In this document: one piece after another, positions 4,899 to 64,000 of the stretch | Layout: each line of letters opens with the position of its first letter | Numbering within the stretch: position 1 is the first letter of the stretch | Assembly (NCBI GenBank): GCA_015233405.1 | Contig: JADFXT010000008.1 | Coordinates: 11,250-75,249, forward strand | From: Candidatus Omnitrophota bacterium | Lineage (GTDB): Bacteria > Omnitrophota > Gorgyraeia > Zapsychrales > Zapsychraceae | Length of the DNA: 64,000 nt | Direction: 5' to 3' | Program-made: the position numbers and the translations under genes | The notes under the pieces: generated by a model | Databases searched by the model: none | What the model saw: the letters and a program-made list of their open reading frames with translations, nothing else | Told to the model about the DNA's origin: nothing

Positions 4899-4985
4899 TT
4901 TCTTCAGGCTTCGCTTATCCGTATTTGTCACCATGGTCCAGCCTTTAAATCATGGATCCCCGACAAAACATTTCGGGGATGACAT
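4899..4985. repeat. Composite hairpin (MITE/REP-like) element, short copy.
   Basis: ttcttcaggcttcgcttatc...atttgtca...tccagcc...ggatccccgacaaaacatttcggggatgaca aligns with 11312-11421. In this copy the first hairpin core is replaced by ccatgg. Confidence 0.7.
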
Positions 4986-5030: not shown

Positions 5031-5072
5031 TAAAGACAAAAAACGCGGGTTTGGAATTCCAAACCCGCGTTT
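5031..5072 (-). terminator. Rho-independent terminator for the 5102-6385 gene.
   Basis: aaacgcgggtttgg-aatt-ccaaacccgcgttt (5041-5072) forms a perfect 14-bp stem. On the minus strand it runs into TTTTTTGTCTTT, 30 nt after the TAA stop. Confidence 0.8.
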
Positions 5073-6385: not shown

Positions 6386-6527
6386 GTTCTCCCCCTTTTT
6401 TTTATTCTCCCGCTTAACCTGTGAATTGGTTTTTCGCGGGCAAAGTTCCCCAAACTCATCAACAAAGGAAAGTATAACATCCAGAAAACCACTCGACAAG
6501 GCAGCCAAGCCTCAAAAGGGCCTTTTT

Positions 6528-6549
6528 AGGAAAGCGCTGTCTTTTAGAA
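6528..6549 (+). promoter_or_regulatory. Conserved 22-nt intergenic motif, copy 2 (aggaaagcgctgtcttttagaa), in the divergent region upstream of mutS.
   Basis: It matches 4798-4819 at 20 of 22 positions. A TAGAAA -10-like hexamer lies ~65 nt upstream of the mutS ATG. Function is not established. Confidence 0.3.
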
Positions 6550-6611
6550 ATCTGTCGCTCCAAACACCTTTTTCCTTTTTTCCCTTTTTATTTTATGCTA
6601 TAAAGGTGCCT

Positions 6612-9297: not shown

Positions 9298-9397
9298 TGT
9301 CATCCCCGCAATCCTTAGGCGGGGATCCAGAATTTTGAGAACATAGATTCCCGACCTGTCTGCCGACAGGCAGGCAAAAGCTTTCGGGAATGACAAC
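9298..9397. repeat. Two hairpin (REP/MITE-like) units between mutS and mutL.
   Basis: The units are tgtcatccccgcaatccttaggcggggatccag (9298-9330) and agattcccgac...tcgggaatgaca (9346-9397). They share the GTCATyCCCG...CGGGrATCCAG termini seen at 10477, 11337 and elsewhere. The first could double as the mutS terminator. Confidence 0.7.
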
Positions 9398-11311: not shown

Positions 11312-11534
11312 CTTCTTCAGGCTTCGCTTATCTACATTTGTCATTCCCGCGATCCCACCCAAAAGCGAGAATCCAGCCTTTTAAAATCGTGGATCCCCGA
11401 CCAACCCATTCGGGGATGACAATCTTTAGTTTTTTGCTGTCATTCCCAACTTCCTCGATTTTTTTATCTAGAAATGATTGGGAATCCAGGAAATAATTTA
11501 AGATACTGGATCCCGGGTCTTCGTCCGGGATGAC
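11312..11534. repeat. Cluster of four hairpin (REP/MITE-like) units in the convergent mutL / giant-ORF intergenic region.
   Basis: The cluster contains cttcaggcttcgcttatc...tgtcattcccgcg...gcgagaatccag (11337-11377), ggatccccgaccaacccattcggggatgac (11391-11420), tgtcattcccaac...ttgggaatccagg (11438-11490) and ctggatcccgggtcttcgtccgggatgac (11506-11534). These probably act as terminators for both convergent genes. Confidence 0.75.
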
Positions 11535-11572
11535 AAAATACGGATTCTTTTCACTACCGACAATGCATCTTC

Positions 11573-14500
11573 CTAAACCCGAATAATCATTCCATAAAAA
11601 TCAGATCCCGCCGGGCGATAAAGATGCCCTTTCGAATCCATTTCAATAAGACAAATAGCTTCAACAGGTTTTAAACGCTCAATGCTTAAGAATTCCTCTC
11701 GCACCCAATCCGTTCCGGCGAGCCGGTGCATATTGCCTGCATAATTAAGCGTAATATCATAGACGGGCTTACGGGTATCTTTTCTAGGAGCCTTGATTCT
11801 CCGCCGAAAATCACGGTCAATTTTCTTGCTCAACTCTTTTTCCACTAACCTAATATTAGTCTGGTCTATCTCACCCGTCGAAGGAACTTCTGGATAAAAG
11901 AAAACCTCTGCTTTTCCAAAAATATGTTGATAGCGTTTTGGCATCAAAGACCATAGCGGTATCCATATCAGAAATGGCTTTCTTCGATCAAAAATAATAA
12001 TAATTCTTTTATCTTTGTTTATAACGTATGGACGAGGTTTCCGTTGGCACAAATGTTTTTCCTTAATAAGAGGTTTGATGGCCGGCGGGGTCCAAGGTTT
12101 AACGCCCTCACCCGGGCCCTCAAAAATTCTTCCGCCCTTTATTCCGCCGCAACATTTCCGTCGACATCGGGATCTCAAATAACGATAAGGCTTAAAAGAC
12201 GAGCAACCTGGCACGAACGGTTTAACGTAAGGACTGGACGGATATTTTTCTTCACCATAAAGCTTTGCCTCCTTTTTAAACCAAGGATAAATAATATAAC
12301 GCCTCCAAGCCCCATATCGTCGACGGCGCTCGCGGCGTTTACAATTACGGATTCTATCTTTCCAATCCTTAGGCCAATCTTTCTCGTCATGGTTCGCCAA
12401 ATAATCATAAATGCAAGTCCGCGAACAGTCTGCCGCTACGACACAACCTTTGCAGTCGGGATACGATTCGCTTTTGGGCATCGCTGTCGCACCTAAGACC
12501 GGCACTGCGGCCATGGCAATTCCGGCAGTATGGAACCCAATCCCCGACGGAAAAATCATCTCTCCAATTAAACCGGCGATCGTAAAAAGCCCAACAACTA
12601 AAACCAATTTTAAGGCTGTCTTAAACCATGTTTCTTTTTTCTCAACCCGATGGCTCATTTGAAGATATACGGCTTGGGCGCTGTTTTTATAACCCGCATC
12701 ATTAATATCTTCGACAATATCCCTTGTATTCTCCAGCACAACCTTGGCTTCTGCGGCTAATCCTAATTTAATGAGCGCATCCATGCCATCGCCATTCATT
12801 TGGGCCATCTCATTACGCAGGCGGTCCTTTTCACTTGGCTCTACAGTCTTTCCTAGTTTTGCATCCAAGACGGAAATCGACATCAGATACTGGATAAAAT
12901 CATTTTGATCCACCGTATAGTCTGCCTGTTGATTTAAAGAAAATAATTCTTTAGCCATATCAAGAGCCAAATTATATTGAAAACTTCCCAATACCCGAGC
13001 GAGAAAGAACCGGGCCACCGTAATAAATAAATCTTTTTGCTCTTTGTTTTGTGCCGACGGAATGATGTAATATTTCACATACGAAGAACAATAAGCAATG
13101 AAAGACTGATATGCCGTCCGGTCAAACGCAGAGAGTTTAGCCAATAGTTTTACAAAATTTTTCCAATAGACTCCGGTGTTATAATAGCCGGCTATTTTCA
13201 TCATGCCATTCATAGCGCCGCAAGCGGCTTCATTGATCTCTTGCTGACTTTTCGCGTCAAGCGCTTTGTCTTCGTCGATGGATTTAGAAATTCCATCCTC
13301 GATTTTTGCCATGTTCTTTGGTATTTCATAAGCATTAACAACAGCCCTGTCGAGCCGGCCTGTTTTATCCCCATAGTCACGGATATGCAGCTTAATAATG
13401 TTTGCCGCGCCCTCTTTTTCAGCCAGATTATTTAGAAAATAGATCCACGATTCCAAATAAACCGAGCTGCTTTCGATCATCTTATCGGACAAAATAGACT
13501 TTTCTAAGTCGGGGAGAGCAGCGGAATATTCCTGGGAACAAAGCATGTTTAGCTCCCTAGCAAATTCCATGCGGATTTCAAGCAATTCCTTGTTACCAGC
13601 ATTGATGGCCTTTAGACAATCATCGCCTAACGACTTCATCACGGCCATAAATTTTTCCTGGTCAAGCGCGGCACATTGTTGAACGCTTCGGCCCTGAAAC
13701 ATCGGTCCTTCTTCAATGATTTTAGCTGATGCTGCTTTCTCCTCGGGCTTAACGGCTGTCGGAAGCTCTTGCACAGGCTTAGTAACGACCGCGGCCGATT
13801 CATTGATCATTTCAATATAAAGGTGATTATCTATGCCTAGGTCTTGCCAATTTTTCGTAAACTGCGATGACGTAAAAGAAACGGTCAGCTGCTGCAAAAT
13901 AATATCCAGCCGGGCTTGTTGTCCTGCGGGAATTTTTTTAATCATAGCGCTAATCGCAATTCTTTCACTCAATGCATCTAAATAGCTTTTGTCCAATGCC
14001 AGTTCTTCTTCGCTGCCTAATTTAATCGTATACTGGCTGTAAATATCCGCTAAAGCATCCTCCTCAGCCTCGGACTCAAATAATTTTTCTCCTAATAAGC
14101 TTTCTGCCAACTCGATTAACGGATGGAAAAATTCATGATGGTCAATAAAACGAGACAACATTCTCTGATTTTCTACGCTTAATAATCTCGGATTGATTTC
14201 TTTGAGTTTCTGCTCACGTTCTTCTGCATCCGCAATATTGAATATTTCCGTCACTTTCAAGTGGTCAACAATCATCTTTCCTTGCCCCGGCGCGCCGGAC
14301 TTCGGCACATATTTGCCGTAAACAACACCACTGCGGGCAAAAGTTTTTCCGGCGAGAGCGGCAGGATTGGAGTCCTCATGAAGCCCGGCAGATTCATTCT
14401 TTGACATGGCTTTTAAACAATTACATTCCGGCAAATAAGAGCCGCTGTTACGTTTTTCCCTGAACGCTCGAATCTCGTCACTGTTCCAATGCTCTGAGAA

Positions 14501-17500: not shown

Positions 17501-20500
17501 AGGAGAGAAAAATCCCGACATAAGAATAAGCCGGGTGGTCCAAGGAAGATTCCACATCTTCATCGGCTGTTTAATATTGCCCGTTGTTAATCCGGAGACA
17601 GCCTCGTCGACTTTTGCATATAACGCTTGAATGGTGTCATTATTAGAAATCACTCGCCCTGCTTTTGATTGATAGTCTTTTTGGTACAAGAAAAATTCGT
17701 TCTCCGCCTCAAAAACAGCCGGGCTCATCCGGGCGATGACGCCGCTTCTTTGGGTTCTTGCATGAAAACCTTTACGCCTCTCGTCGGTATTCCGCTCGAT
17801 AGACCAGATCTCATCCCACAAAGGATCTAAATCCATTTTATAAAGCTGTGCGGAATCAACAAAAACTGTCCTAGCACCCCTATGAATGGACCGGCCGATT
17901 TGCATTAAAACATATCGACGGATAAACGGCACATATATTTTCGCGTATTGCGCCATGGCCTGTTTGTTATAAGAAACATTCTTTAATCCCGCAAAAAGGG
18001 CCTTAAGAACGACCTGGCTGACAGAGAGCTTTAATAATGCCCAAACCTGCGCTAACGACGGAGAATAAAACGCGTTGTCTCCTTTAATAACCATAAAACC
18101 TTTTTGGGCCAAATATCTTACAATCGTGGTCTTACCGCTGGCCGGCAATCCTGTTATCCCGACGAGCTTTACTCCCATTTTTTCTTTTAACTCTTTAACA
18201 GATGCAATCTTTAGCTGATCACGTTTACTCAATTCCTGTCCACGGACCATTGTTTCGGAAGCAAAAGGATTTCCTGCCAAGCGTAAATATTCTTTCACAA
18301 TCGCGATATTGACTGGCACCTGGCGGACCGCGTTGATCAAATTGTCGTCTAATCCCAGACGTTTAATTTCCTTCTTTGCCAACTCTTCGTTTGATTGTGC
18401 CACAATTTGAATATCGGTCTTTGCCCAAGAATCTATAAGGTAAAAGAATCCGATCTCCGTCTTATATTCCGGATTGTTCTCTATAATCTCGCGTGCCTTT
18501 TTTCGGAACGCTTCGCTTTTGACAAACGCAAGGTTATATCCACCCGTCGACCTTCTCGCTATCCGTCGAACTTTGCCCAAGGTATAATGAAGCCCGGCGA
18601 TAGTCCCGATATAATGGATCTGCGCATCTGTTAATCCATATTTTGTTAATGCCTCGTAAATAAATCCATTTCGATCTAAAATTAAATCTCGGGAAACTTG
18701 CTCATGGTCGTCAAACGTGAAGCTTCCATTGTTCAGAGGCTTTTTCGCAAACTTGCCGATATCATGAAGAATGATCGCAAAAACGAGCAAATCTTTTTTA
18801 GCAACACCGTCTATCTTTTCCTGTAAAGCCCCCTCACATAATTCCCAAATATCTCTCCAGAGACTAGGCGCATCAAAATACGCATCCAAACATTTTTGTG
18901 TATGGGTAATGATGCCCCATTGATGCCATTTAGGCGAATGATGGAGCACATTGTCCACATCAGCGGCAAATTGTTGTCTGTAAACAGGATCTAGGGCTAT
19001 GTTATTTTCCACGACACGCTTGGCAAACCCCGTTAATAAACCAAAGAATTCTTCATGCTCAACGAGGACTTGCTTATCCACCAGGGACAGCAACATGGAA
19101 ACTTGTTTTATAAATTCAGGATTGGGCGACAATAGCCCCATGCTCTCTATAGAAACAACTTTGTCCGGGAAGATCTTATTTAATAACTCCTTAATCGTTC
19201 CGATGGCTCGCCGGGATTCCGAAGAGTTACGCTTTTCTTCGCTATTGGCAATCTCTAAAGCCTCAGCCAAATACGGCACCACACGAATCCATTTCTCGTT
19301 CATCTCCTCAGAGGAATAATTTTTGATCACAGAATCCGCCTTCTTCTTAAGCGGATTAACAAATTCTATTTCCCCATCTTCGACGATCGGCCAGTACTGT
19401 AAAGTTTGGAAAGGAGGATTGCCTCTGGTATCCAGATCACGCAATAATCTTCGCATCAAGCGCAATTCCAGAGGAACATCGACAAAGATCTTTTCTATCG
19501 GAGCATCTTTCACCTCTTCTGTCATCATCGGATCAAGAGCATAAAGCGATTCTAATAATAACGTTCCATTTTCCGGTAAAGAAACAACCCTGCCGGAATG
19601 TCTCTTACTTTCGTGGGTTTTCATATCAAACGCAGGTAAGTCAACCTCTTCTCCCCTCATCAAGCGCCCAATATCTTCTTTGGCCCATTCCAGGTGAATA
19701 GCCCCCGGCGAATCCCCATTCGGACTGCCATCTGCTTCTAACTTTGGCCATTCGGCTATATTCTTGTAATACCAATCTAACGATAACAATAAGACCGGGC
19801 TTCCAGACTTTTCAATTTCTTCCACTTTCTTCTCAGCCAAAGTCGTTTTTCCGCTTCCGCTCGGTCCGCCGATGATGATCACGTTGCGGGTATTCAGCGT
19901 CGAAGAAACTGCCTCCTTGGCTTGCGGAATTTTAAGATCTGTGAAAAGAAGCATATCTAGAACCCACTTAGAGAGCGAAGATGGACGATAATACAACGCA
20001 TCTATATCCAAATAAGTTTTAATCCCTTTCTTCGCCCAATAGCCAACGCGGCTTTCTTCCACAGTAATCCCATATCTGGAAGGCGACTTTTCTTCACCAG
20101 TAGATGGAAGAATATAATCTTTTTTGGGACACGCTTCTAGGGCAATATTTTTTTGTTTTATGATGTTAAGGATTTCCTCAACCTTTTGACTAATGCCTTG
20201 ATACTGGCGGCTCTGCGGATAAAGATTCCGCAAAATAAGAGCATGGCCGATGCGTGAATGATCTGGCAATATTTCTATGGCATCACGGATATACTTTAAG
20301 TGAGCATGAATGACTTTCTCGTTATCCAACTTATTTATTTCTCCCAAATGCGCTGTGATGACAAATCCTTCTTGATGCGCCAAGTTAATAGCATCCTTCC
20401 AATAAGATATAGGAAAATTCATATCAGACGCACCGGAGAAATCTATGCCATACATTCTCGAAGAATATTCTTTTCCGCCCTTCTTCAAATCAGCCAATGT

Positions 20501-23500
20501 TTGTATAACATCCTTAAATTTCTTGGGATCTTTCATAAAGGGGTTTCCGCGATTGAAGGAAAACATAAACTTGACCTGATGCTTGCCACCATAATGTTCA
20601 TCCGCATAATTTTCCGCTTCCGTAGCAACCTTATAAATATCCCACAGTCTTTCGTCGATAGAATCATAATAAGGCTTGCGAGGATTGAATCTTAATTCAA
20701 CCCATTTCGCTCCATCCGCGAAAGCTTGTTCGATGGCACGTTTTGCCAACTTTCTTGCAAATGCCTTTTTATCCTCTTGGTTTTTATATAAATCTTCTGG
20801 AAGGTCTTTGACATCGGACCAGCCTAACAAATTAATGTCATTTTTCTGCTCGAGATGAGATAGAAATGTGTTATTCGATATCTTTCTATCACGTAACATG
20901 TTGGCCAAATCTTCTCTCATTTGGTTCTCTGAATATTTGTTATTATCGGCCATTCGTAAATATTCTTTAAATGCCTCCCGTATATTCAGTTCTCCGTTTT
21001 TCACCAAAGGCTTGTCTCCAGCTTCTTTTCTCTTAAGGTCAAACTTACCTCTATCAGCTATCAAAAGATCTATAAATTCCTCATCAGGATATGAGGCCGT
21101 CGTATGATAATGTACTGTCAATTTTCTCCAAATTGTTCTGATCATCCAGATAAGCGCCTGATAAACAAGATTATCGAATAACGAAGAAGGATCTTCTTTT
21201 TGCTCTTCGATATTGCCGACTTTTTCCTGAAGGTCTTTTATCACGGATAATGTTTTTTCAGAAAAATTCGGCCTCTTAGCCAAATCACAAAACACTTGAT
21301 GGATTGTCCTATTTTCATCACGCTTTATCTCGTCCTCTAAAAGAACAACTAAATCTGAAATCTCTTTGATGCGCTCAGGAGTGAAATATTCAGAAGTCTT
21401 ATGCAATTCTTCATAGAAAACAGGCGCCATTTGTAATCGTTGCTGGATGTCAGCTTGATAGAATTTCTGAACAAATTCTTTGGCTAACTTTTCCATAGCC
21501 TTATCGTGATCAGGATTGGATTCATGCTTTTTGATGATGGAATATAAGCGAGGATTTTGACTACGCCCAAAATCTTCAGGGACGTTCCAAAGGATTTTTC
21601 CGTCTTCTTGTCGACGAGCGATTTCAAATTTTTCCGGTGGACCGCGAAGCGTAATTTGATTCTTCTCTGCCGCACTTTTGACCAGATCAACAGCTTCCTT
21701 ATAAAGTTGCCGAAGCTGAGCTGCTGCCTTAGGATGATAATTCGCCACCGCTAACTTAAAGTCAATCGGTTTGATCGCGTGGGTGGAAGAATTTTTCTTT
21801 CCCGATAAGCCGGATGAAGTTTTCTTCCGTTGACGAGTCAATCGATTCTTGAGCGTTTTACTCAAGGTAAAAGGCTTTATGCCTTTAACGAAAGCTCCGA
21901 TATTCTTTAAAATACCTTTGGGTTCCGGCGCACTCTCGACGGGTTTCGCCTGCGGCTCTTCGATCTCAACAATATCTTCACGGGTATCAACAGCGTCTTC
22001 TCGGGCATCGGCCTCGCCGGTCACATCATGGCCCAAAGAAGTCGCGGAAGCTATTCTGTAGCGCAACTCTTCAATAGCATCTTTTCTGTCCGTCGAGCTT
22101 TCGACATATCGGCCGGACACAAAATTGGTCACCCCGCCCTTGGCCGCCTTGGAAATATTCTTGTCCGTAATACCTCCCTGAATAAGAATTTCACCTTTAA
22201 ACTTTCTCTGCTTGCGCAGTTCTCTGGCCTTATATTCAACCGGTGTAAAATCTTTTCCGGTCCCGGCGGTGATGGAAGACGTCAAGCAGATCATGTCTGC
22301 TTCTTTGAGGACCTTGTCGGATAACAAAGAAACCTCTTCTTCCAATTCAAGGACAACGCCGGCCAGCTTTTTATGTTTCTTGATAAACCTTAGAATATTA
22401 AGCAAGTCTTTCTCGTCGGCGAAACTATCTCTCTGCACCTCAATACTGCGGACATTAAGATCCTTGTTACAATAAGAAGACACTAATTCCGCGCTCGGAT
22501 TTAAAACCATCAAATGAACATCCATCAGAATATCGAGATCAAGAATTTTTCTCAGCTTTAATAAAAATGTAGGGGTCACCCAGTTGCTATTGGCAACCAA
22601 ATTGGGGCTCAAACCTTCTTTATGAAGCTTATCGAGAAATGACTGTTCAATCCTGTCAATATGAATAAAATCTGCACCGATCGACGTAGAACCGGCCATC
22701 TTCTCCACAAAATAATCCTGCGCGACCTTGCCACCTAAATTGCGAACTTGATTCTCGGTAAGATCAGGGAACGGCACGCCGATCAAGATCGGGCGCTTGG
22801 CGGTCAGCTTGCTCCAGATAACCACAACTGCGGTTAACCCCAAAGCAATCAACGTAGTCCATAAAAGCGTCATAAGTCCGTACGAATGGCTCCAGATGAT
22901 GATCCCGGCGGCAAAAATGGCTAGGACGCCTAAATTGGCAGATAAAAACAGCAAATAAGAAAATCCTGGATGGCGTCTATTAGAAATATAATTACGGAAC
23001 AAAGAATTCAAATACCCCGTCGCAAAATTAGCCAAGACGCTAAACGCCGGCGGCACGACGTTTTGCACAAATTCGTTCTGAATAAAGTCCAACGGCATTC
23101 TGGCTTTTAAGGCCAACCATTGTTTGTTAAGTTGGCTCTTATAGGAATAATCCGCTAAAAGCTTATTGGCTTTTTTATCAGGCATGTCGTGAGCCTTTTG
23201 CCTGTCACGAATGTACATCTTGATAAATCGCGGATGGAAAAATATCCCGTAAAGAAAAGTAATGGGAACTCCCCAGGCCAGAGAAATCAAGACGCGGGTA
23301 AAATGATAAACTCCGACGGGGAAGAAATGGTTGATGACAAGGATAAAGAAAATGTCCGTCGCAATTCCTTGGATAAATCGCCAGCCCATAAATTCCCATA
23401 ATCTTCGGTTCAACCGGCTTTTAAAAGCCTCGCTGTCGGAGAGAATGAGCGAGAAGCGTTCGCTCGACGCACCAAATATGGCGGAAATAAAACCGGAAAC

Positions 23501-50500: not shown

Positions 50501-53500
50501 TTTGCCGAATAATACGACCGGCAATTGCCTATACCAGACTTCGAACAATTCATCCAAGGTGCCGAATCCGCCGGGGAAAACCACGATGCCGCGGCAATTG
50601 TTATAAAGCCCCATTTTTCTGGTCACAAAGTGCTCGAAACGATAAACATCCTCTACGTATTCAGAGGTCTTTTGTTCAAACGGAAGTTGGATCCTAATCC
50701 CTTGTGTTTGATTTACAACGTTTTTCGCTTGACCGGCCGTTGCCCTGGCTTCGATATATCCTTCCAAAGGCGCTTCCATCATCGACGGGCCAGCCCCTGT
50801 CCGAATTTTTAAGCCGGCGTTGTAAATCGCCTTGCCGAGTTCCCGGGCTTTGTCAAAAACAGGACTCGTCGACGGGATTCTCGCGCTTCCAAAAATCGCC
50901 ACGGCCTTCGGCCAAAGTAAGTGAATTTGCCGGACAAGTTTTCGCTCTTCTTGAAATTCTTTAATTAACTTGCTCGTTCGAACATCGACGGGGAAAGGCT
51001 CTTTCTTATTTTTCTTCAACCGCAACCCTGCGCTCAAAAATACCATCACACCCAAAACCTTCAGCATCGGGATAACAGCCGCAGCCAAAAAGTATTGCCA
51101 AGCTCCGCTAAGAATAAAGACCACCATCGCCGCCATACCTATCCACTGCCATCGCCCAGAAACATCTAACATCTTTTCTTCATTTTTAGTTATTCTCGAA
51201 AGAAGCACATTAAAACCATCCAGCGGAGGAACCGGCAAAAGGTTGAGGGTCATTAAAATCAAATTAATAAAAACGACTTGCGATAAGAAGACCTCAAAGC
51301 CCAAATGCCAAGCTCCGGATAAATGAACTAATCCTGTGAAGACAACAGCGAGAATCAAGTTAGCGGCAGGACCGGCAAGAGCGACCCAGAACATCCCTTT
51401 ACGGCCGACTTTAAAAATGTCGACTGGGACCGGCTTTGCCCAACCAAAACTAATTAATAACGGAAGAATGATCGTTCCGAAAAGATCGATATGCGCCAGA
51501 GGATTGAGTGTCAACCGTCCTGCTTTCTTTGCGGTGTCATCCCCAAAACGATAAGCAACATACCCGTGAGCGAATTCATGGAAACTCAAACTGATTAAAA
51601 CAACAGAGATCATCAGAATTCTTTGTAATAAATGCGGTCCAATCAAGGCCATCCCCGTAAAACCAAAGAACATCCAATTTTTAAATGAAGGCTTCTTGAT
51701 CCGCTCAATGACTTTCGAGAGGAATTTATTCGACGATAAAGTCGAATTTATTTTCCCAATAATCTTTTCTCTGTTGTTATAAGCACCCTTAAAACTCGAA
51801 AGCGCTTTTTCGACGGATAAAAATAAAACCTTGCCACCATTTTGTGCTAACTTGGCCAAGGAAATTCCAAGCTCTCGGCTTAATATCGATACAGCGAATG
51901 ACAATATTATGATGCCGACAATTAAAACAGCAATGATTGCCCCGGCAGGAGAAAAAGCTTGAGTAGAACTTGAAATTGCGGCGGTATCGACAACAGCTTG
52001 AGCTGCCCCCAGCGATGATAACCCGCCAGCCGCAGCACCAGCTCCTCCCACAGCCGCCTGAATATGCCCTATCGATAACAAGACCGTGGCCATCAATCCA
52101 CCGACAATGTTACGCTTCATATGGCTTGCTGGTTTTTCTACCCTCGGTGTATCTAAGCAAACTATTTGGCTCTGCGTTGTTTTTTCCGGTGTGGGTTTTT
52201 TAATCTCTTTGTTCAATGACTTAATCACCATCGGCAGAAGTCTTTGAGCTGAGGCATTTTCAAAAGGCTTCTCGGAAAGAATCTTCAATGTCAAAACTTT
52301 CGATTCATTCCTAGAGGAGATAATCTGCATCGCAAAAGTGCTCAAGTCGACATAATGAAGGGTTGCAATAGCTTCCTGATTTTTAGAAATAAGCGCCAGC
52401 GATATTAAAGTATTAATGCTGCGTTCGTCTCCCTTTTCTGCCCCTAATTTAAGCTTCCAAAGTATGCCCGCGGCTTCTTGGGCATACTTATCAGACCCTT
52501 TGGGCAATTCTAGTTGCGCCGTCGTATCCTGTTTGCTAAGAGAAGTGTCGCTGATGGCCGAGGCCGCACGCATTTCAGAAGAAAATAATAAAACCAAAGA
52601 AGCAGCCATTATCGAGGAGAGGAAAAATCTGCGCCCAAATAGAGATTTGCGCTTAAGCGATGTTTCCGGTTTATTAGGCGTATTATCCGCAGGCTTAACA
52701 GCAAAAGCTGGCATCTTTGCAGAGTCAGAAACTTTTACCTCAGGCAGACCAAGTTTAATAAGCGCGCTATAAATCTCAGCATTCTCAATTGAAATCAATC
52801 CATTGGCTTTTACATCTTCAAGAGCTCTGGCGCATTCCAACCATTCCCGCTCATTAATAAGCCCTGTCAAAGCAGTATCGATGTATTTCTCTATATCCTG
52901 GACAGGAAGACATTTCATTTTATTAACATCAATGCTGGCGCCTACAAGCTCTACCCACCAACCATTTTTCTTCATGCCATCTAGAACAATTCTGGCTCGA
53001 CCGGCCATCTGATCCTTGTCGACGTTAAAAATGTCGCATTTCTGTATAACATCCAAACAACCAAGCCAATCATTTCTCTTTGTTAAATTCTCAAAACTGG
53101 TTTCCGCATAGGCAGAAACATTCTTAATAAATCCTTTTTCAAAGCCTTTTAACGCGATGTTCAAATATCCGAAATAATATTTCTGCTTTAAAAGGACGTT
53201 TAAATACGTCATTACGCTGGATTTTGTGTTAATAATATTTTTGTCAATTGCAGTCATAACGACATTGGCGTATTCCCAGAGCATGTTATTATCTTCGAGG
53301 ACAGTAAGATGAGTCTTAATGTCATCTTCCGTCGTCAAGATCCCAGCCGCTATACCTTCCTGGACTTTTTGTGAATATCTCGATATCCAGCCACTTTGCT
53401 CTATACTCTTTAAAGATTGAGCAAATCGTTCCTGGCTATTGTTGAGCGTAAAACCATTTCGAGCAGCTTTGATGACAACATCGGAAAGCTCAGTATAAAA

Positions 53501-56500
53501 TCCATCATTTTCCATTTCTCCAGCAACAGCCTCAAGATACTGCTCTATATCATTTCGCTGGAGTCCTTCCTGAGCCCCGTTCTGAAGAAGTTCATCCACC
53601 AATTTCGCCCATTGCTGATTATTTCTTAACGTAGCCAGCTCAACGATAAACGGTGTTTTCTTGTGCCAAAGCTTCACGGCAAATTTACTATGCTGACTCC
53701 TGTATAAAATATATGCCGGCGCGGCAATCATGCCCAAGAGACCAATAACAATCATGGCTATCGATAGATAAATATTTAAATGGCTCGTGAATCCGATTGT
53801 TTGGCCTGCATCAGCAAACAATGCGCCGGCGCTCAAAAGAATGGACAGCGTTAAAGTCGAAAGCATGTTGAGATTAAAATTGGTACTATTTTTTCCTGTC
53901 TTCTGCGCTTTATCCGATTTGACATTCTCTGCTGGTTTTGAAACAACAGCCGTCTGAGATTTTTCAGTTTGCCGACGAGATTCATTCTTCATGGATGCAT
54001 TGATGATGCCTAAAACCTCTTCAGCGCTATCAACGACTCTCAGTAAATTCTTATCCTCTTCACTGATCAATTGAACGGATGAATTAAACATGGATTTGAT
54101 CATCACATCTTTGATCGGCTGCCAGAATTCCCTGCCGACTAAAAGAACCGGCCGCTTCTCAACCTTGAGTGTTTGCATGACCGTCAAGACATCAAAAAGA
54201 CAGCCTAATGTTTTTACTCTTCCAGGGACAAAAATAAGGCCTAGAGAATTCTTGACGAGAATAACGCGATGATTAGAAATATTACGCAGAACAATTCGAC
54301 CTGGTTTCTGAACAATATGGATTTCACGAGGATAGGAAACCGTTGATAAAACCATCTGAGCGTTCTCTCCGGCGGCATTCTTCACAATTCGCTTTAAAGG
54401 ACGATTCGCCGTGCCCAACCGCACAGGAACACCTTCAGACAATAAGGACGTGGCTGTTTTCGCAATAATTTCCCTTTCATTCATATCTAAGAACCTCGAT
54501 CGTCCAATGATCGTCACGCTCGGCGGAAGCTGGTCTAATTTCGATGCGGCAGATTCCAAATCCTCACTGGCCGCTTGAACATCCTCGATGGATTCTTTAC
54601 GTGCTTCAAACGAAGTCGAACTTAAATATTTGATCGCCTCTTTGGCTGAATCCGTGATAAACGGCCTTGGGCCAACCTGATCTACCCATCCGTATTTCTC
54701 CCATGTTGCATAAAGAGTATCAATGATCGGCGTCCAAAAATCTCTGCCGACGAGAACGAGCGGCAAATCTCTTTTCCAAACTTCAAACAATTCATCCATA
54801 GTGCCGAATCCGCCCGGCATAACGACGATGCCGCGGCAATTATCATAAAGGCCTCTTTTTCTGGTCACAAAATAATTGAATTCGTAATTCTCTTCTACAT
54901 ACGGAGAAATTTTGGCCTCAAAAGGAAGCTGAATACTAATCCCTTGTGTCTGATTTTTCTCATTTCTTTCCACGTTAGCGGCTTGTCTTGCTTCGATATA
55001 TCCCTTAAGAGGAGCTTCCATCATTGACGGGCCAGCTCCTGTCCTTGGGACAAAGCCTGCTTTAAATATCTCAGCGCCAATCTCCTCGCCTTTTACAAAA
55101 ATAGGATTTGAAGGAGGGATCCTGGCACTGCCGAAAATGACGATCGCCGGTGACCAACGGGAATGAATTTGAGAAACGCGTTGTCGTTCTTTCTTAATCT
55201 CATTCAACATGCCGTTTTCATTCTTGGCCTGAGGAACAGACGGTGTTTCTACTAAACGAGCTGATGATTTTTTAGCAGTACGAACAAACACCTTCTTAGG
55301 GGCAGGCTTAAAAGCGGCCTTTGTATGCGCAATAGCAAGGGCCTCAGTCCTTTGATCCATAGCTAAATGGGAAACGATCTCATGGAAGAAAATCTTAAGT
55401 TGTTCAGGATCATTTCTAATGCTGGTATGCAGATAAATGATGCGGCTATCCATAACCACCCTGGCGCGGCGGCTTCCCACTAAATGCATGTCGGTTGTGA
55501 ATATAAACTGAATGGACGGAAGGATCTCTAAAACTTGATTGACCAATTCTTGCGGACCTGCCCGAGTCACTTGAGCAATGACATCTGAAACATTTTTCTG
55601 AATAATTTCATAGAATTCGATCGGCAAGCCGTCGGGAATGAATTCTTTCTTAAGCATCTCAAGCGTGACCGCAGGAAAAACCGTCTTTTTCCCAAACCAT
55701 CTTTTCTCCAATGTCTGCTGACTTGGCGATACCAATTTATAATAATTTAATAAATTCTTTCGGCCGGATCGAATAGACGCTTGAGCTTTGATCTTTGCTA
55801 AAGTCGCCACTCCCAAATTCTTTGCCTTATCCATAACGGGTTTCCGCAAAGCTTTCCTTTGTTGGAAAATATTATATTCCTTATTATCTTTCATTATGCT
55901 TGCAATAAAATCTTCCCTATCCTTAAGGACCACGTTCTTATGGTCAACGTGCTCTCCTCTAGCTCGAGCTTCCTTAATCATGCTTTCTGAGATCTGATCA
56001 GGAAAGCCCTCAGCAAAAATAAATTTCTTGATACCCATATTCAGCGCCATTTCCACACATTGACGGCAAGGGTCATGCGTCGCATAAAGAGTGGCCTCGC
56101 TGAAGTCTTCGATTTTTCCTTCTAAGTATGCCATGATGATGGCCTTTTGCTCCGCGCAAACTGAACGTCTTAAGTCCGACCGGTTATCCCTGATGTCCAA
56201 AGCAATCTCTCCGTTTTGATAATAAGAAACATAATCCTTGAAATTAAGCATGACATCATCCTGCCGTATATCTCCGCCCATGACATCTGTATCCGTCTTT
56301 TGATAAATAGACGGGCCATTAAACCCAATGCCGCGAATAATACCATTTTCAACCAAAACCGCTCCGACATTAGCAATCTCTTGTTTATTAAAGTGGCTGA
56401 ACGCAGCAGCGTACGCAAGCTTCAACCATTTTTCATCAGTATTTTCCAAAGAAGCAAATTTCTTTTCCAAAGCGTCCTTTAAAGCAACTAGATTTTCATA

Positions 56501-59500
56501 TTCAATAATGTGCTTTAAGAATTTCTCCTTGCTGTCCAATGCGCCAGCCTTTTCTTGTAAAAGGATGATGTCCGCTAAAATCTGCCAGAAAACAATGGCC
56601 CTGACTTTTTGTGTCCCCGACTTATCTTTGCGAACATGGTATTGGCTGCCACCTTGAACGTCATCAAACACAACTTCCTGGTTATCGAAGCGATTGATGA
56701 GAACATACAGATGACCGTCTTCTTTAACGACTAAAGGCCCTAAAGCTTTCTCGAGCATCTTCTCTCTATCCTCGATCCACTCTTTTCTTTTCGATTCAAT
56801 AGCTTGTGCAATGTCTTTTTCTTCACGTCCTTTAAGCCCGTCAAGGAATTCTGTTGTCTTTTTAATCTCGGCGAGAATATCCTTTTTGTTCATCTTGGAA
56901 TAAGCCTGTAAAACAAGACTTGTTTCTCTGGCCAAGCGAGAATCAGTACCATCATTTCCCAACGAAATCAATTTGGCCCAGGCGAGAATCCTGACCCAAT
57001 AAAAATCATCATCGGCCAACTTGACCAATTTTTCATTACTGTTTGTTGTTATGACTTGCGAAACTCTATCTAACCATGTGAAAACCGCTGCCTGTTCTCC
57101 GGATTTTTTCATGATCCTTGCTTCAACTTTATCCACGACGCTTTGCAAAATGGTATTCAGTTCTTCGGTATAAACATCCACCTCATTTTCTTTTGCGGCG
57201 ATAACATTCTTTAAAAACTCAAAATCTTTCTTAAACAAGCCTTCTTGGTTATACATCACATCTAAATTCTTGATGAAGGCCTTAAAATGTTTAATGGACG
57301 GAGACGGCATGCTTAAATGGATGTCGGCGCGATCCTGGGCGAGCTTCTGGAGATAATACCAAACAACCCATAATCTGCGTCGGGTGGCGAGATCTCCGCA
57401 AAGAATTACTTCTTTAACCAAATCCTTAGCTTCTAAAGTAACCCCGACAATTTTTTGTAATATCATCGGCATGATCCGGGCATAATATTTTTCATAAGAA
57501 GCCTGATCGCTTCTCACCGCAGAAGGATAAACTGACTGAGTTAGATCGTTGGTGCCAAGGCTGACAAAATTAACAAAATCGTTTCCTACTCGTTTATTAA
57601 GAAGACGTCCGAGATTTTCAGCAGCCTCCTTGGTCTCTACCATAATGCCGATATCAAAAATCTTATCCTTCATTAATTCTTGAGCTTTGGCCGTCGAGAT
57701 AAGGCTATTGATAGCGTCTAGGTCGCCTAACATGTCGACCATCGGGAATTCAACTTTAAAATTCTTGAAACCTTCCTTGGACAAACGCATCAAGGCACGC
57801 AATTCTTGTCTGGCAAAAATAACTCCTAACGGATGTTCGATATACCATTTATTTCCTTTATAAAGCATAAACCTAAACGGTAACGGCATTTTATCGGCCA
57901 TACAATCGAGGATCCTAAACGTGACACTTGTTTCTCCGGCCGCTTGAAGGATTTCTCTGAAAACGTTTTCCAAATCAGACAAAGAAAATTCCAGGGTATT
58001 TGTAAAAAGATTTTCCGTCCGGACCAACCCTATGCCTTGAGCAGAATTTTCCACGGCCTTACGCACCGCCTCAGCTGTGTCTGCATTGGCAAGCACAATT
58101 GAATTAATCCTGGCCAAATCCATTAAATTGCGTTTAAGGAATTTTTGTTGATACGCTGTCACTTCAGCATTTTTATTTAACGATGCTTCAAATTCTTTTT
58201 GAGAAGAATCAGACGGAGATAAAAGCACGCTTCCGTCGGATAAAAGGAACGCCTCCTGGCCGTCTTTAAAAGAAGCGCTGGCATTGGAGTCTTTTAATAC
58301 GGCAACCGGAATATCAAAAGCCTGGGCCACAATCGCATAATGGCTTTGCAAGGAGCCGGTGCTATTAATAATGCCTTTCAGATTTTTGCCGAATATTCTC
58401 ATCAAGGAAGCGAGCTGGATAGGTGTCGGAATATAATGAAGCATCAGAATCACGTCCTTATCCTGGACGGATGGAATCACAAATTCCGCTTTTCCAAAAA
58501 GATAATCGGCGAGAAAATCAAATTTCCTCATGAGTTCAAGTTCAGCCTGAGAGGCATCGACAAAGAAAGAAGAATTACCGTTGGCATACAATTTGGAAAA
58601 TGCCGCAAAGGTGCCGTCTTCTTTCAATTGTTTGAGTGACTGGGCAACGGCTTCTTCATATAACACATATCTGGCGCTCAAATAGCCGGCTTGGCCCGAT
58701 AAAATATCTGATAACTCTCTAATAATATTAAAGAGGAAGGTTTTTTCAATCTGGGACACGATCTTAAAATAGGATTCATCGGCGGAATAATCCTTTTGAT
58801 TAGCCGTTTCCAAAAGAATCGCTGTTTCTAAAAAGAGGGCCTTTACGCGCGCCTTCGCTGCATGGCGGACAAGGTTACGGATATTATTTGTATCATAGTC
58901 ATATTGTAAAATTAATTCCTGCAAGACCTCCTCAAGGGCATCTTTAACTTCCTTAAAATTTGTTTGTTGCTTAACATAAAACTTGGGATCCTGGCCGGCC
59001 TCTAATTTTTTCTCTATCTCACCCTGAAACTGTTTGATCGCCGGCTCTACAAGATTTTCTAGACTATCAATAACCACTTGTTCCGCCCAAAAGCCAGGAG
59101 CTGTTACAAATCCATCAGCTGTTTGCTCTAAAACGACCTTCAGAAAATTGAACACGCTCGAATCTTTAAGCCCTGTTCTTTCAAAAACCCTTTCCATTCT
59201 TTCTAAAATAGAATTCTTAACATTCGTATATCGCTCAATTTCCTGAGACATCTTCTCTTTAATGGCGGCGTTGATTTTTTCCTGTTCCTGCGAAGCCGTC
59301 GAACCAGCATCCTCATTCTTATCGGAAACCAATAAAAAGGCGTTCGGGGATTTCAGATTCTCGACGATGATCTCATAGATGGATTTGGGACCTATCTTAT
59401 ATTCCTCAAGGCTCTTTCGACCGGCTACGCCTAATGTTTTTTCAAACAAACTAACAAGGTCTAAAGTAAAATTCGTCTCGATCAACTTTTCGGTCATAGT

Positions 59501-62500
59501 CTGTAAAACTTGTTCTAGGCGGACCGCCGGAGAAAATCCATAGACATTGTATTTAAGAATTTCAAGACCGCTGAGCGACTCAAAATTAATATGGCTGATA
59601 TCTTTAATAAAGATCTCAAAAATTCTTAAGGTCAGGATTTTATTAATGACCTCTCTCGACATATCCCTTGTAACCGCTGGAGCCATAAAGACTTGACCCC
59701 GGACATTTTTCTCGGCAGTGGTGACAACGGCAATGTGCTGCTCGACATTCAATTTCAATTGTTTTAACCAATCTGCGTCGGCAATAATTCCCAGAGAATT
59801 ATTCTCGAGAAATTGAATATGACTTAACAAAAGATTGTTTTGAATAAGGGTGGAGATGGTGAGTTTTCTGGCTTCTTCTTCGCTGGATCCCAACAAGTGC
59901 AGGAATTCATGGTCTTCAAAGATAATTCTCAATTGCTCTGGCGGGCCGCGTAAAATATTCGGATTAACATAAAGGACTTTTTGGTTTCCAACTTCCGCCG
60001 GAGCTTCCAACGCAGTCCTGATGACGACGTTATCAAAATTAAGTTCGATGCCTTTTGCCGCCAGCGCGTCTTTTCCGCCAAACGCCGTAACGATCGTCTC
60101 AAGCTCTTCTGTCTTTGGAGCTCTGTCCGATTGAGGCTTTGTCGGCATCGTCGCCGGATATTGTTGTTTGGTAGCAATTCCTTCTTTTGCATAGACCGCA
60201 ATATACGTCCCTAACGGCCTTTCCACAGAAAATATTTTACCGGTGCATGACTCTGTCCTTGGCTTGGCGATACGATATTCTTCGACGTTTTCTTCTCGCT
60301 GATAAGTCTTCACATCCGCGCTCGTACCCAGAAGGACAGCGTCTTTGATATTATTTTCCAATAAGACCTCAACAAATTCGTCAATGGTGATGTTTTCAAA
60401 AACAGCCACACGGACCAATTGTCTTTCTGCATTATAACCGATCGCGGACATTGCCATTTTCTGGTCTCTGGCCCAAATCAATTGCTGGCTTTCTAAGGAC
60501 GGCTTGGCGTTAAATTGAATGTCGTCAAGATTGTTCTTTCCATTAACGATGATGGCCTGGCCGGCTATGGCATTTCGCGGCAGAACACCTTCTGTCAAAA
60601 TTCCATTGGTAAACTGGACCTTTACAAGATTTCTATTTTCTTTATCAAAACTCACAAACCAGAACAGGCCATTTAATGGCGTATATTCTTTCTGGAACAA
60701 CCCTTTGGCCCCTTGGGATTTCGCATATAATTTTCCGTTAATCACGGTCAAGAACGCGGGCTCCCAATGGCTTTGAGAACCATTAAACACGAATATTGGC
60801 CGTCGGCCTGACGGTGTTGACTCAACAAATTCCTTCATCGTTAATCCAATCGCTGCGCCGGGTTCTTTATCCTTTTCGCTCACAGGATTTTCCATAAAAT
60901 CTCGCGCCAACACATTTTTATCCGCATAAAGCTCAACGTCCACTTTATCCAAATCCATAGAAGTCACTTCGAAATCCCTGATGATAGACTCGGCCTGCGC
61001 CACGATTTCATTATCAGCTATTTCGACGCTAGAAACACGGCCTTGCAAGGAGGATTGAGCTGAAAGATCTGAATTTCTGGAAAGATTTCTTCTTCTCTCT
61101 TTCTTAGAAGCTTCCAAATCTTTCATAAATTGCTCTGATTTTAATTCTGCGATTCTTTGTTCATGACGCTCTACTTCCTGCTTATAAAATCCGAGAACTC
61201 TGGCATTTGTGGCTTCTTGAATTTGAGAATTCAAAATATTGATAGCTTCACGAATCTGTTCTTCGTATTTTCTGATGGCCTCTTCACGATTCAGCGACCA
61301 ATCTTCATTAATTTCCTTATCAGCTTTTTCTAATATTTCCCAACGCTTAAAAGTCTTTTGGATATACATCGGATTCTTTTCCTGTAATAGCGCAACAACT
61401 TCATCCGGAGCAATATCAAAAATTCGCTCTTTGTTTCCTAAAATATCGAGATGATTCTCCGCTACTTCGAGCATCATGCGAGCTAATTGTCTTTGATGAG
61501 GGACGATTAAATGATGACCATCTTCCCGAAGAGTGGTTTCTTGTTTGGAAAGAGCAACAGTTTTCTTTAAATTCGGGAATTTTGAGAAGATTTCTACAGC
61601 CGCATCTTCAATTTCTCTTCTATCCTGCAAGACTTTCAATAAATCGCCTTCCAAAATACTCTCTTTTTGATCAATCTGGGCTTGAGATACTTGTAACAAA
61701 AGATTTCTTCTTTCTGCATCTGACAAAATGCTCCAATCTGTTTTATACTCACGCGCCACTAAATAACGGATATAATTTCTTAATAAAAGATATAGCGCGT
61801 TATCCTTGGATTTAATTTTCTGCATGGTCAACTCTTTGTCCTGCTCTACTTCCACAAATTCCTGACAAAGCAACGTAGCAAGCTCAAACTTAACAATCGC
61901 GGCATTAACAACTCTCTCCTGAAGATCGTTTAAATATTCTTCAGTATCCGATAAGACATCAAAATTCTCTTTGCTCTTCTTGAATTTTAAGGACCATGCA
62001 TCAATCGTCGCGTAAATATCCGGATATTTCTCCTTAAGAACATCCGCCAACTGCTCCTTTGAATTATTAAGGAACACGGCATGCAATTGCGGATTCATCC
62101 GGATTATTTCCAACACAGCATAAATTTCTTTGTCTTTATCACGGGATAAATCTCGACGCTTATAGAGAGGCAAATCTTTAATAGAAGCTTCTCTAAATAT
62201 TTCCTGGAATTCTCGGTTGATATAATCTAACTGATCAAATAAATAAACAATATTTAAAGTCCCATTGAGCCAATAAGCAAAATGCATCCACGTAAAAATT
62301 GTTATTAATTGATCCATAGCCGCTTCGACATTTTCCGGCGTCAAATGATCGATTGTTTTCATAAATGTTCTATAATCCTCATATCCCTGCCATCTGGCCT
62401 CGAAAAGGCCTTTGAGGTCATCAATATTAAAATCCTTTAATTGAGTCAGGAAATAAAAAATGCTTTTGGGATCATCATATCTAATTTTATGGAAAAGCCC

Positions 62501-64000: not shown

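Follow-up and report, generated by a model that had tools for sequence, protein, structure and literature searches.

The 64,000-nucleotide window analysed here (the whole stretch of DNA headed above, from Candidatus Omnitrophota bacterium assembly GCA_015233405.1, contig JADFXT010000008.1, positions 11,250 to 75,249) is occupied for the most part by a single giant open reading frame (ORF) on the minus strand, which enters at the right-hand edge at 64000 and ends with a TAG terminator at 11573-11575 (giant ORF, 11573..64000). From 11576 to 64000 this frame comprises 17,475 sense codons and no stop, and the other five frames over the same 52.4-kb span contain between 658 and 1,392 stops each, equivalent to one per 13-27 codons. 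Given a stop probability of 0.063 per codon, calculated from the base composition of the strand, the log10 probability of meeting no stop over 17,475 codons is -491. The longest ORF outside the giant frame in the same span is 157 aa (37419-37892, plus strand), and the longest stop-to-stop run in any non-giant frame is 180 codons. An unbroken minus-strand frame of more than 17,475 codons, with no competing ORF above 157 aa, had been claimed in an earlier reading made from the sequence only, and these counts bear it out; the DNA, which it described as AT-rich, is only moderately so, with a G+C content of 43%. Residue 19 of the translation aligns with position 62 of the 328 positions of the PPDK_N profile; the window edge cuts this domain, and therefore the gene continues upstream and the GTG codon at 63766 is internal, as the same reading had proposed. 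The window carries the 3' 52.4 kb (52,425 nt) of the gene, with the 5' end lying outside, and residue numbers are those of the translation from the window edge and not from the true N-terminus.

Coding status was assessed with a codon model trained on the neighbouring mutS and mutL genes, which compared the giant frame with its two shifted frames in 58 consecutive segments of 300 codons. The giant frame was preferred in all 58 by a margin of at least 52 nats, and the preference was equally strong in the 75% of the protein without a Pfam match and in the 25% with one, giving a coding signal that is uniform along the gene. An Rfam scan of the whole window found no intron, ribozyme or other RNA family, a tRNA scan of the giant ORF found none, and a TRF scan of the ORF found no tandem repeats except a single 37-nt array. 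Shine-Dalgarno cores (GGAG/GAGG) precede 7 of 367 in-frame ATG codons against a background of 4.9%, so that there is no enrichment, although this is a weak test as the flanking genes are also without clear Shine-Dalgarno sequences. Both mutS (6354-9233, plus strand) and mutL (9460-11280, plus strand) are complete and converge on the 3' terminus of the giant, which is therefore in an ordinary chromosomal context. The giant gene is genuine, chromosomal and one continuous coding frame. The frame is coding throughout and is maintained by selection, as had been argued previously from stop frequencies and as is now seen in the stop statistics, the codon model and the ratios of nonsynonymous to synonymous substitution (dN/dS) of 0.12-0.23 between internal paralogues.

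The protein was scanned with Pfam and NCBIfam profiles on overlapping pieces of the translation, and several of the modules detected, all on the minus strand, have the extent of entire genes. The malate dehydrogenase (MDH) module (24818..25780, aa 12741-13061) is full length, spanning positions 4-327 of the 328 in the equivalog model NF003916 with a score of 499 bits, where the cut-off is 271. It opens with a methionine at the native start of the family (MKVTVTGAAGQIG), and the motif GAAGQIG is intact, as are PRKNGMERKDL, LDQNR and WGNHS with the catalytic Arg/Asp/Arg/His set. The best 120 relatives in a search of 5.8 billion proteins are all free-standing, 119 of them 321-356 aa in length and one 468 aa; the top relative is from a Ca. 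Omnitrophica metagenome-assembled genome (MAG) and shares 68% identity, and several others are likewise named Ca. Omnitrophica. The embedded MDH keeps 89 of the 100 columns that are conserved at 98% or more in those relatives, and 8 of the 11 broken columns cluster at aa 12754-12797 (window 25612-25741). Within this cluster, at aa 12788-12797, conserved Gly, Met and Ala are each changed to Lys, and the consensus GV.MEL.DCA reads KIAKEIQDHK. This helix is presumably one that contributes to the dimer interface in MDH structures, and with these changes the embedded MDH may no longer be able to dimerise. The next module, the catalytic domain of a polyprenyl-phosphate sugar-phosphate transferase together with a membrane helix of its own (24359..24772, aa 13077-13214; PF02397 106 bits, TIGR03025), starts 12 residues past the MDH end.

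The second cassette of this kind aligns end to end with stand-alone relatives as a complete secreted glycosidase precursor (36236..37594, aa 8803-9255). Its N-terminus is a twin-arginine-type signal, SRRGFLSALGAGLAFL, also read as KKPVSRRGFLSALGAGLAFL...ATA, and is followed by a TIM barrel of glycoside hydrolase clan A (WEFGNEYN) and then by a C-terminal beta-sandwich of the type IX secretion system (T9SS) type. Stand-alone relatives of 420-430 aa (PF02836 plus PF18962) are 39-42% identical from the signal peptide to the last residues, and several of them, including the closest named ones, are from Bacteroidota; FlgD_ig and Por_Secre_tail give weak matches in the segment. The cassette has a G+C content at third codon positions (GC3) of 0.50, compared with 0.44 overall. 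Together the T9SS-type sorting domain, the Bacteroidota relatives and the raised GC3 suggest that the glycosidase was acquired horizontally before or during its capture. No degenerated stop-codon footprints are recognisable at the ends of the MDH and glycosidase modules.

Two further units can be followed outside this protein. The first is a PEP-synthase/rifampin-phosphotransferase-like unit at the window edge (61136..64000, aa 1-955), detected with Pfam and NCBIfam and composed of an edge-cut PPDK_N ATP-grasp domain and a swivelling His domain, spanning aa 1-387 with TDGGDTSHAA at 346, followed by a helical domain of ~570 aa. This unit of ~950 aa recurs in 143 representative proteins (E<1e-30), always ending at query position ~952-955, either as a stand-alone protein of ~1,030-1,060 aa or deep inside proteins of 2-4.6 kaa. 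An AlphaFold2 model of aa 380-960 has a mean predicted local distance difference test (pLDDT) score of 91.7, and the best Foldseek hit of this model is rifampin phosphotransferase (RPH-Lm), a weak match (E=0.01, TM-score 0.24-0.30) that serves as a lead only. The second is an FGGY (xylulokinase-like) cassette (26180..27925, aa 12026-12607; PF00370, PF02782, TIGR01312 166 bits), the ~580-aa unit of which is found in 11 other multi-enzyme proteins of 1.6-3 kaa at 44-59% identity with different partners, among them epimerase, hexokinase, GHMP kinase and aldose epimerase. The GC3 of the FGGY unit is 0.56 (z=5.8) and that of the PPDK-like unit 0.38 (z=-4.0), differences that are consistent with different origins or ages of the cassettes. 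The ORF is a mosaic of gene-sized cassettes, and several of them are whole genes taken up in frame, because the MDH has its native Met, the glycosidase precursor is complete, and the PEP-synthase-like and FGGY units recur alone or with other partners.

Duplication within the chain was detected by self-BLAST. Uridine-kinase cassettes 1 (38132..38974, aa 8343-8623; TIGR00235 99 bits, PF00485; P-loop GPSGSGKT at 8356) and 2 (19061..19906, aa 14699-14980; TIGR00235 96.6 bits) are paralogues of 281 aa or 0.84 kb that share 89% identity in protein and 90% in DNA, with a dN/dS of 0.17. Two pairs consisting of a LOG and a LOG-like domain, pair 1 at 53978..55210 (aa 2931-3341; PF03641, TIGR00730; PGGFGTMDE at 3062, in the first half only) and pair 2 at 49727..50968 (aa 4345-4758; PF03641 102 bits; TIGR00730 104 bits against a cut-off of 96; PGGFGTLDE at 4476), are 53% identical over 410 aa with a dN/dS of 0.23; one member of each pair keeps the LOG motif PGGxGTxxE. 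An unannotated domain of ~125 aa is present in three copies, at 41783-42154 (aa 7283-7406), 35171-35551 (aa 9484-9610) and 32870-33226 (aa 10259-10377), with 30-43% identity, a dN/dS of 0.12 and the conserved motifs GYFGNLT, PVKFY, APP and HEYLE...H; two of the copies adjoin transmembrane (TM) bundles. This domain matches no Pfam family, and its AlphaFold2 model is unusable (pLDDT 38). With dN/dS values of 0.12-0.23, all copies of the duplicated cassettes are therefore kept under purifying selection.

The remaining modules with profile matches are, from the N-terminal side, a second PEP-utilizers mobile domain with a PEP-binding TIM barrel that is PtsI-like (57263..58399, aa 1868-2246; PF00391, PF02896; TIGR01417 76 bits, below cut-off), a cytidine/dCMP deaminase (55970..56443, aa 2520-2677; PF00383 54.7 bits; CAE at 2615, PCRQC at 2644), a HEAT repeat array (48221..48814, aa 5063-5260; PF13646, PF02985) and a Dus-like FMN TIM barrel (39914..40591, aa 7804-8029; PF01207 110 bits over profile positions 65-260 of 319; TIGR00737 102 bits against a cut-off of 293). 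Beyond the first uridine kinase are a GNAT acetyltransferase (35660..36028, aa 9325-9447; PF00583 45.8 bits), a TPR array (30209..30835, aa 11056-11264; PF07719, PF00515, PF13414) and a histidine phosphatase (27914..28516, aa 11829-12029; PF00300 89.7 bits; RHG at 11832), homologous modules of which are also present in other proteins of 1.3-3.8 kaa. Towards the C-terminus are a ribulose-phosphate 3-epimerase (Rpe)-like barrel (22061..22681, aa 13774-13980; PF00834 54.6 bits; TIGR01163 63 bits, below cut-off), a marginal adenosine-deaminase-like domain (20108..20758, aa 14415-14631; PF00962 26.8 bits against a cut-off of 27; TIGR01430 28 bits), an HD domain with a CoaE-like P-loop kinase (17609..18823, aa 15060-15464) and a radical S-adenosylmethionine (SAM) and SPASM module (14417..15304, aa 16233-16528; PF04055 76 bits, PF13186; TIGR04317 100 bits, below cut-off; CNLQCTFC at 16250). 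The HD domain (aa 15060-15114, HD at 15079) reaches 23.8 bits with PF01966 against a cut-off of 22 when scanned alone, and the kinase (aa 15279-15464, GLPASGKT at 15284) is a weak match at 35 bits with TIGR00152 against a cut-off of 65. There are four P-loops in the protein. In all, ~24-25 catalytic modules are supported by hidden Markov models, some below family cut-offs, or, for the glycosidase, by homologue alignment, and many catalytic motifs are intact, including the phospho-His motif TDGGDTSHAA, CAE/PCxxC, RHG, CxxxCxxC, the MDH Arg/Asp/Arg/His set and the protease motifs described below. Around 25 distinct enzyme and scaffold families are represented, the highest copy numbers being four for LOG and two for uridine kinase, such that none dominates. 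Two dark regions, aa 391-1870 and 5261-7800, have no matches to sequences of the PDB. The possibility that the deaminases, LOG, HD and radical SAM modules belong to a defence system was considered and rejected, as PADLOC gives superfamily-level matches only (dCTPase 22.9 bits, CARF_ADA 38 bits, pVip 61 bits) and the pVip score is lower than the radical-SAM maturase match of the same module (100 bits).

The number of hydrophobic segments in a Kyte-Doolittle scan is 55 with a threshold of 1.6, 33 with 1.9 and 67 with 1.4. These candidate TM segments are clustered, as hairpins where they lie between soluble modules and as bundles where they surround three proteases. The first of these is an M50 site-2-protease-type intramembrane metalloprotease (51035..51649, aa 4118-4322; PF02163) with HEFAH at 4141, NLLPVPPLDG at 4253 and ~5 TM segments. 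The second is a TM bundle with a CPBP/Rce1-like intramembrane protease (31886..32662, aa 10447-10705; PF02517 40 bits) that has EEMFFR at 10602, FRTAH at 10660 and HAIFN at 10696, and the third a rhomboid intramembrane serine protease (31037..31564, aa 10813-10988; PF01694 67 bits, NF008155). Set against E. coli GlpG, the rhomboid would presumably retain the TM2 His/Asn, the Ser in GFSV (~10925) and the His in VGHLIGL (~10970). Thus, three intramembrane protease families are embedded in the chain with catalytic motifs that are intact by sequence. A separate segment between two TM hairpins, aa 11540-11650 (window 29051-29383), reads ...LLYLSAHGIVGNI... and ...GLFDSCLSAAG... and resembles, by eye, the His/Cys dyad of caspase-/CHAT-like (clan CD) proteases, a resemblance that is not backed by Pfam at E<=1; a genuine dyad here would bring the number of embedded proteases to four.

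The hairpins also carry information about topology. In nine clear hairpins the density of Lys and Arg is 0.20 in the 15-residue outer flanks and 0.05 in the short connecting loops (Fisher p = 3e-4), the density across the protein being 0.13. Positively charged flanks of TM segments face the cytoplasm, as stated by the positive-inside rule, which with these charged flanks would place the adjacent large modules in the cytoplasm. We infer on this basis that the bulky enzyme modules face the cytoplasm, a placement that fits the needs of the enzymes for ATP, NAD, FMN and SAM/Fe-S. The glycosidase segment has a positively charged, signal-like hydrophobic stretch before it and a weakly hydrophobic one after it, and would be the best candidate for an exposed loop.

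Most of the domain content had been anticipated in the sequence-only reading, which described near-full-length homologues of about 30 normally free-standing enzymes separated by some 60-70 hydrophobic segments. The free-standing nature of the units is confirmed by the MDH and its 120 best relatives and by the 420-430-aa stand-alone precursors related to the glycosidase, and the Tat-like signal, glycosidase and beta-sandwich are recovered by homologue alignment. Most of the other domain calls were reproduced with Pfam and NCBIfam; two were not, a first GNAT (aa 8620-8800) and a His-Cys module (aa 11430-11715), for which there is no match at E<=1, and a proposed P-loop kinase near residue 5647 is reduced to a Walker-A motif with a weak AAA_33 match (19 bits). 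The figure of ~30 enzymes is therefore a slight overcount against the ~24-25 catalytic modules supported, and that of 60-70 hydrophobic segments is compatible with the hydropathy scan across its thresholds.

Among 185,579 species genomes the giant gene has one match, contig JANNCL010000111.1 of a Ca. Omnitrophota MAG. This contig is open through all of the 10,449 nt fetched and shares the PPDK-like unit at 48% identity; the similarity ends exactly at residue 954, the unit boundary, with different content beyond. A scan of metagenome contigs gave no match, and a 2,201-aa query running from the histidine phosphatase to Rpe retrieved single-module relatives only. The search for orthologues in related genomes that had been proposed has thus yielded one distant relative sharing one unit and no close orthologue. 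The best relatives, this MAG and the Ca. Omnitrophica source of the top MDH relative, support the suggested link to Omnitrophota and probably reflect an Omnitrophota origin for the gene.

The sequence-only reading did not recognise the architecture as a known one, and on this point it does not hold, since multi-enzyme giants with many TM segments have been published (bioRxiv 10.1101/2023.11.21.568195; bioRxiv 10.64898/2026.06.07.730766). In Omnitrophota, giant ORFs (>20 kb) are a common feature (Seymour et al. 2023, PMC10066038), and their giant proteins reach 85,804 aa with numerous TM helices; HEAT_2, Radical_SAM, TPR, PPDK_N and Lysine_decarbox rank among the domains seen most often in them, and glycolytic enzymes and peptidases are also embedded (West-Roberts et al. 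2023, bioRxiv 10.1101/2023.11.21.568195). A catalogue of 916 proteins of at least 10,000 aa has more recently been compiled by Nielsen & Lui (2026, bioRxiv 10.64898/2026.06.07.730766), in which class 1, the "multi-enzyme metabolic clusters", is defined by many distinct Pfam families that tile the chain with none dominating by copy number. In this catalogue 94% of the proteins are membrane-associated (TM helices and/or signal peptide), 46% are TM-only, which is interpreted as an anchor in the membrane bearing domains in the cytoplasm, and 80% of the sequence clusters are singletons. With 52,425 nt and 17,475 codons within the window, the gene described here exceeds the sizes by which Omnitrophota giants are recognised (>20 kb; >=10,000 aa), and it shares their membrane character, with 55 hydropathy peaks at a Kyte-Doolittle value of at least 1.6 (33-67 according to the threshold, by a crude predictor). 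Judged by its domain content, it has the defining features of class 1: it is longer than 10,000 aa, has many Pfam families and dozens of TM helices, about one per 300 aa, combines HEAT/TPR scaffolding with radical SAM, GNAT, HD and kinase modules, and is unique as a whole sequence while its architecture type recurs. It differs in leaning towards nucleoside/nucleotide and pentose-phosphate enzymes and MDH, in place of the starch synthase, glycosyltransferase and phosphoglucomutase emphasised for class 1. The M50, rhomboid, CPBP and uridine kinase families are not mentioned in the main text of West-Roberts 2023 or of Nielsen & Lui 2026. The giant multi-enzyme architecture is thus already known in Omnitrophota, and the gene is a new, well-preserved example of it and not a new class of system.

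A second point of comparison is the "Archaeovorin" type, the 39,678-aa protein of Velamenicoccus archaeovorus LiM, defined by a length of at least 30,000 aa, an N-terminal signal peptide with a C39 or S8 peptidase, and a domain set of glycosyltransferases, methyltransferases, glycoside hydrolases, peptidases and NUDIX, with SecA_DEAD/preprotein-binding domains in most (West-Roberts 2023, bioRxiv 10.1101/2023.11.21.568195). Numerous TM helices are common to both, the HEAT_2, Radical_SAM, TPR, PPDK_N and Lysine_decarbox domains are all found here, and in both cases central-metabolism enzymes, a glycosidase and peptidases are embedded. The "Archaeovorin" glycosyltransferase (GT5/GT1), NUDIX and methyltransferase domains are absent from the 17,475 aa seen, part of the protein, with the N-terminus in which C39/S8 peptidases are reported, lying outside the window, and the topology evidence differs in favouring cytoplasmic rather than extracellular enzymes. 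Nonribosomal peptide and polyketide megasynthases and giant repeat adhesins are also very long, modular single ORFs; neither describes this gene, as Pfam scans and TRF found no condensation, adenylation, ketosynthase, acyltransferase, carrier-protein or Ig/cadherin-like repeat units.

On balance we lean towards a single membrane-tethered multi-enzyme chain, with its enzymes in the cytoplasm, that would serve the salvage of nucleosides, nucleotides and sugar phosphates. The giant gene would have grown by in-frame accretion and duplication of cassettes, and its product would be inserted in the inner membrane as one polytopic chain, in which the helical hairpins act as staples that keep modules dependent on ATP, NAD and SAM at the cytoplasmic face, with the glycosidase among the few segments exposed on the outside. 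The salvage theme is suggested by the enzymes of the chain: the cytidine and adenosine deaminases, the nucleotide nucleosidases of LOG type, the pair of uridine kinases, the HD and histidine phosphatases, Rpe, the pentulose-type kinase and MDH. A salvage assembly of this kind in a nanobacterium that relies on a host would be in keeping with the host-dependent way of life proposed for Omnitrophota. Several points weigh against this view. Curated NCBIfam cut-offs are passed by MDH and one LOG pair (subfamily model) only; the remaining enzymes score well below equivalog thresholds, and their specificities, and hence the salvage theme, would follow from family resemblance. Three quarters of the protein (75%) has no family assignment, and the genome and metagenome collections searched contain no close orthologue. 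The TM map comes from a crude hydropathy scan, which missed the weakly hydrophobic signal-like segment at 8808-8825, and SecA_DEAD, common in published giants, has no match at E<=0.01 in the part within the window, the N-terminus lying outside it. In published TMHMM/DeepTMHMM surveys (West-Roberts 2023; Nielsen & Lui 2026), moreover, much of what other giants contain in the way of enzymes is placed outside the cell.

It is possible, although in our estimate unlikely, that the chain does not remain intact and is a self-processing polyprotein, cut in or beside the TM hairpins by its embedded M50/S2P, CPBP and rhomboid modules so that the enzymes are freed, with the gene acting as a substitute for an operon and giving equimolar products; cleavage that bares the twin-arginine signal would then allow the glycosidase precursor to be exported. 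This would give a role to the three intramembrane protease families that lie with intact motifs amid TM bundles, and to the presence in mid-chain of an export signal and a C-terminal-type sorting domain, which are canonically found at protein termini. The MDH, too, retains its native Met and catalytic set, its losses of conserved hydrophobic residues being mainly in the one helix at 12788-12797, and the possibility of C39/S8 cleavage has been raised for other giants (West-Roberts et al., bioRxiv 10.1101/2023.11.21.568195). There is, however, no recurrent linker or cleavage motif, as 5- and 6-mers outside the paralogues repeat no more often than by chance. Many junctions are without a TM segment, and several of these lack a linker as well, with only 12 residues between MDH and the sugar transferase and with the histidine phosphatase, FGGY and MDH modules contiguous, and intramembrane proteases would therefore be unable to separate those modules. 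The internal signal-like segment could equally be an ordinary signal-anchor TM helix.

A more specific version, an "operon-as-polyprotein" of whole genes, a housekeeping MDH and the complete secreted glycosidase precursor among them, swallowed in frame and cut at hairpins by the chain's own S2P-type, CPBP and rhomboid proteases to release or position the enzymes, is more doubtful still. If true, it would parallel, in a cellular organism, the way in which viruses express polyproteins, and would leave direct footprints of growth by whole-gene capture. Viral and eukaryotic polyproteins and fusions such as nidovirus pp1ab, fungal AROM and mammalian CAD likewise bring enzymes of related pathways and proteases together in one frame. 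The giant differs from these in being 10-50 times larger, in having no recognisable repeated cleavage sites, and in having its modules interleaved with membrane hairpins and not arranged as one linear pathway.

Much less probable than an intact cytoplasmic chain, and in our view improbable, is an extracellular, prey-directed surface protein on the "Archaeovorin" model, TM-anchored, lying mostly outside the cell, and serving to attach to and digest the host envelope. Proposals of this kind have been published for Omnitrophota giants (bioRxiv 10.1101/2023.11.21.568195; PMC10066038), a secreted-type glycosidase, HEAT/TPR arrays and a sugar-phosphate transferase are present, and the downstream ORF at 1-4706 specifies at least 1,568 aa of a protein with a signal peptide. 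Most modules, however, require cytoplasmic cofactors (ATP, NAD, SAM/Fe-S, FMN), and the K/R-rich hairpin flanks and K/R-poor loops place the large modules inside. Domains of the adhesin, dockerin, lectin and lytic transglycosylase kinds are all absent from the Pfam results, TRF gave no tandem repeats apart from the 37-nt array, and there are no secretion or pilus genes within the 11.5 kb of flank in the window. The idea that the ORF is an artefact or non-functional fusion (an assembly chimera, a product of stop-removing sequencing error, or decaying fused pseudogenes) can be put aside as very remote, for although the 0.84-kb uridine-kinase cassettes with 90% DNA identity could in principle mislead an assembler, repeats at that identity are distinguishable by assemblers, chimeric joins and errors are unable to yield 17,475 stop-free codons (log10 P = -491), the coding signal is uniform with paralogue dN/dS of 0.12-0.23 and intact catalytic motifs, and a related open frame is present in an independent MAG.

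The giant genes of Omnitrophota take a large share of small genomes, and this example is useful because several of its modules are legible: a near-canonical MDH with its own Met, a full glycosidase precursor, a recently duplicated uridine-kinase cassette and three intramembrane proteases with intact active sites. That huge proteins originate when neighbouring genes fuse is an idea put forward without direct footprints (PMC11573180). The MDH and glycosidase cassettes are such footprints, and the legible modules are direct evidence of giant-gene growth by whole-gene capture and duplication, proposed but rarely shown. The features of the cassettes also allow a tethered multi-enzyme chain and a cleaved polyprotein to be told apart experimentally, and the charge bias of the hairpins, in arguing for cytoplasm-facing enzymes, bears on the published debate about topology.

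In the flank of the giant gene, a second large ORF on the minus strand starts at an ATG at 4706 and runs off the left edge (1-4706, >=1,568 aa). Its product opens with a signal peptide of the Sec type, MILGREKSYKSKTYKLINILILLSFILNSVLPAQLSFAQT, matches no Pfam family and is not similar to the giant; it may represent the N-terminal portion of a further secreted protein of very great length. Upstream of it on the same strand is a TPR protein of 468 aa (5102-6508), followed at 5041-5072 by a perfect 16+16-nt palindrome with a T-run that looks like a strong intrinsic-terminator-like site. In another genome, GCA_964431495.1, mutS and mutL are near, within a few genes of, an FGGY-hexokinase fusion of 1,637 aa; synteny was considered and set aside, as MutS is just 43% identical, the relative is too distant and the resemblance may be coincidental. 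The intergenic regions of the window contain four copies of a hairpin repeat, GGATCCCCG...CGGGGATGACA, at 4954-4984 (plus strand), 9298-9328 (minus), 11391-11421 (plus) and 11508-11535 (plus). Ahead of two copies there is in addition a 20-nt motif, TTCTTCAGGCTTCGCTTATC (4900-4919 and 11313-11332), and repeat and motif together look like a family of intergenic elements similar to repetitive extragenic palindromes or miniature inverted-repeat transposable elements (REP/MITE-like).

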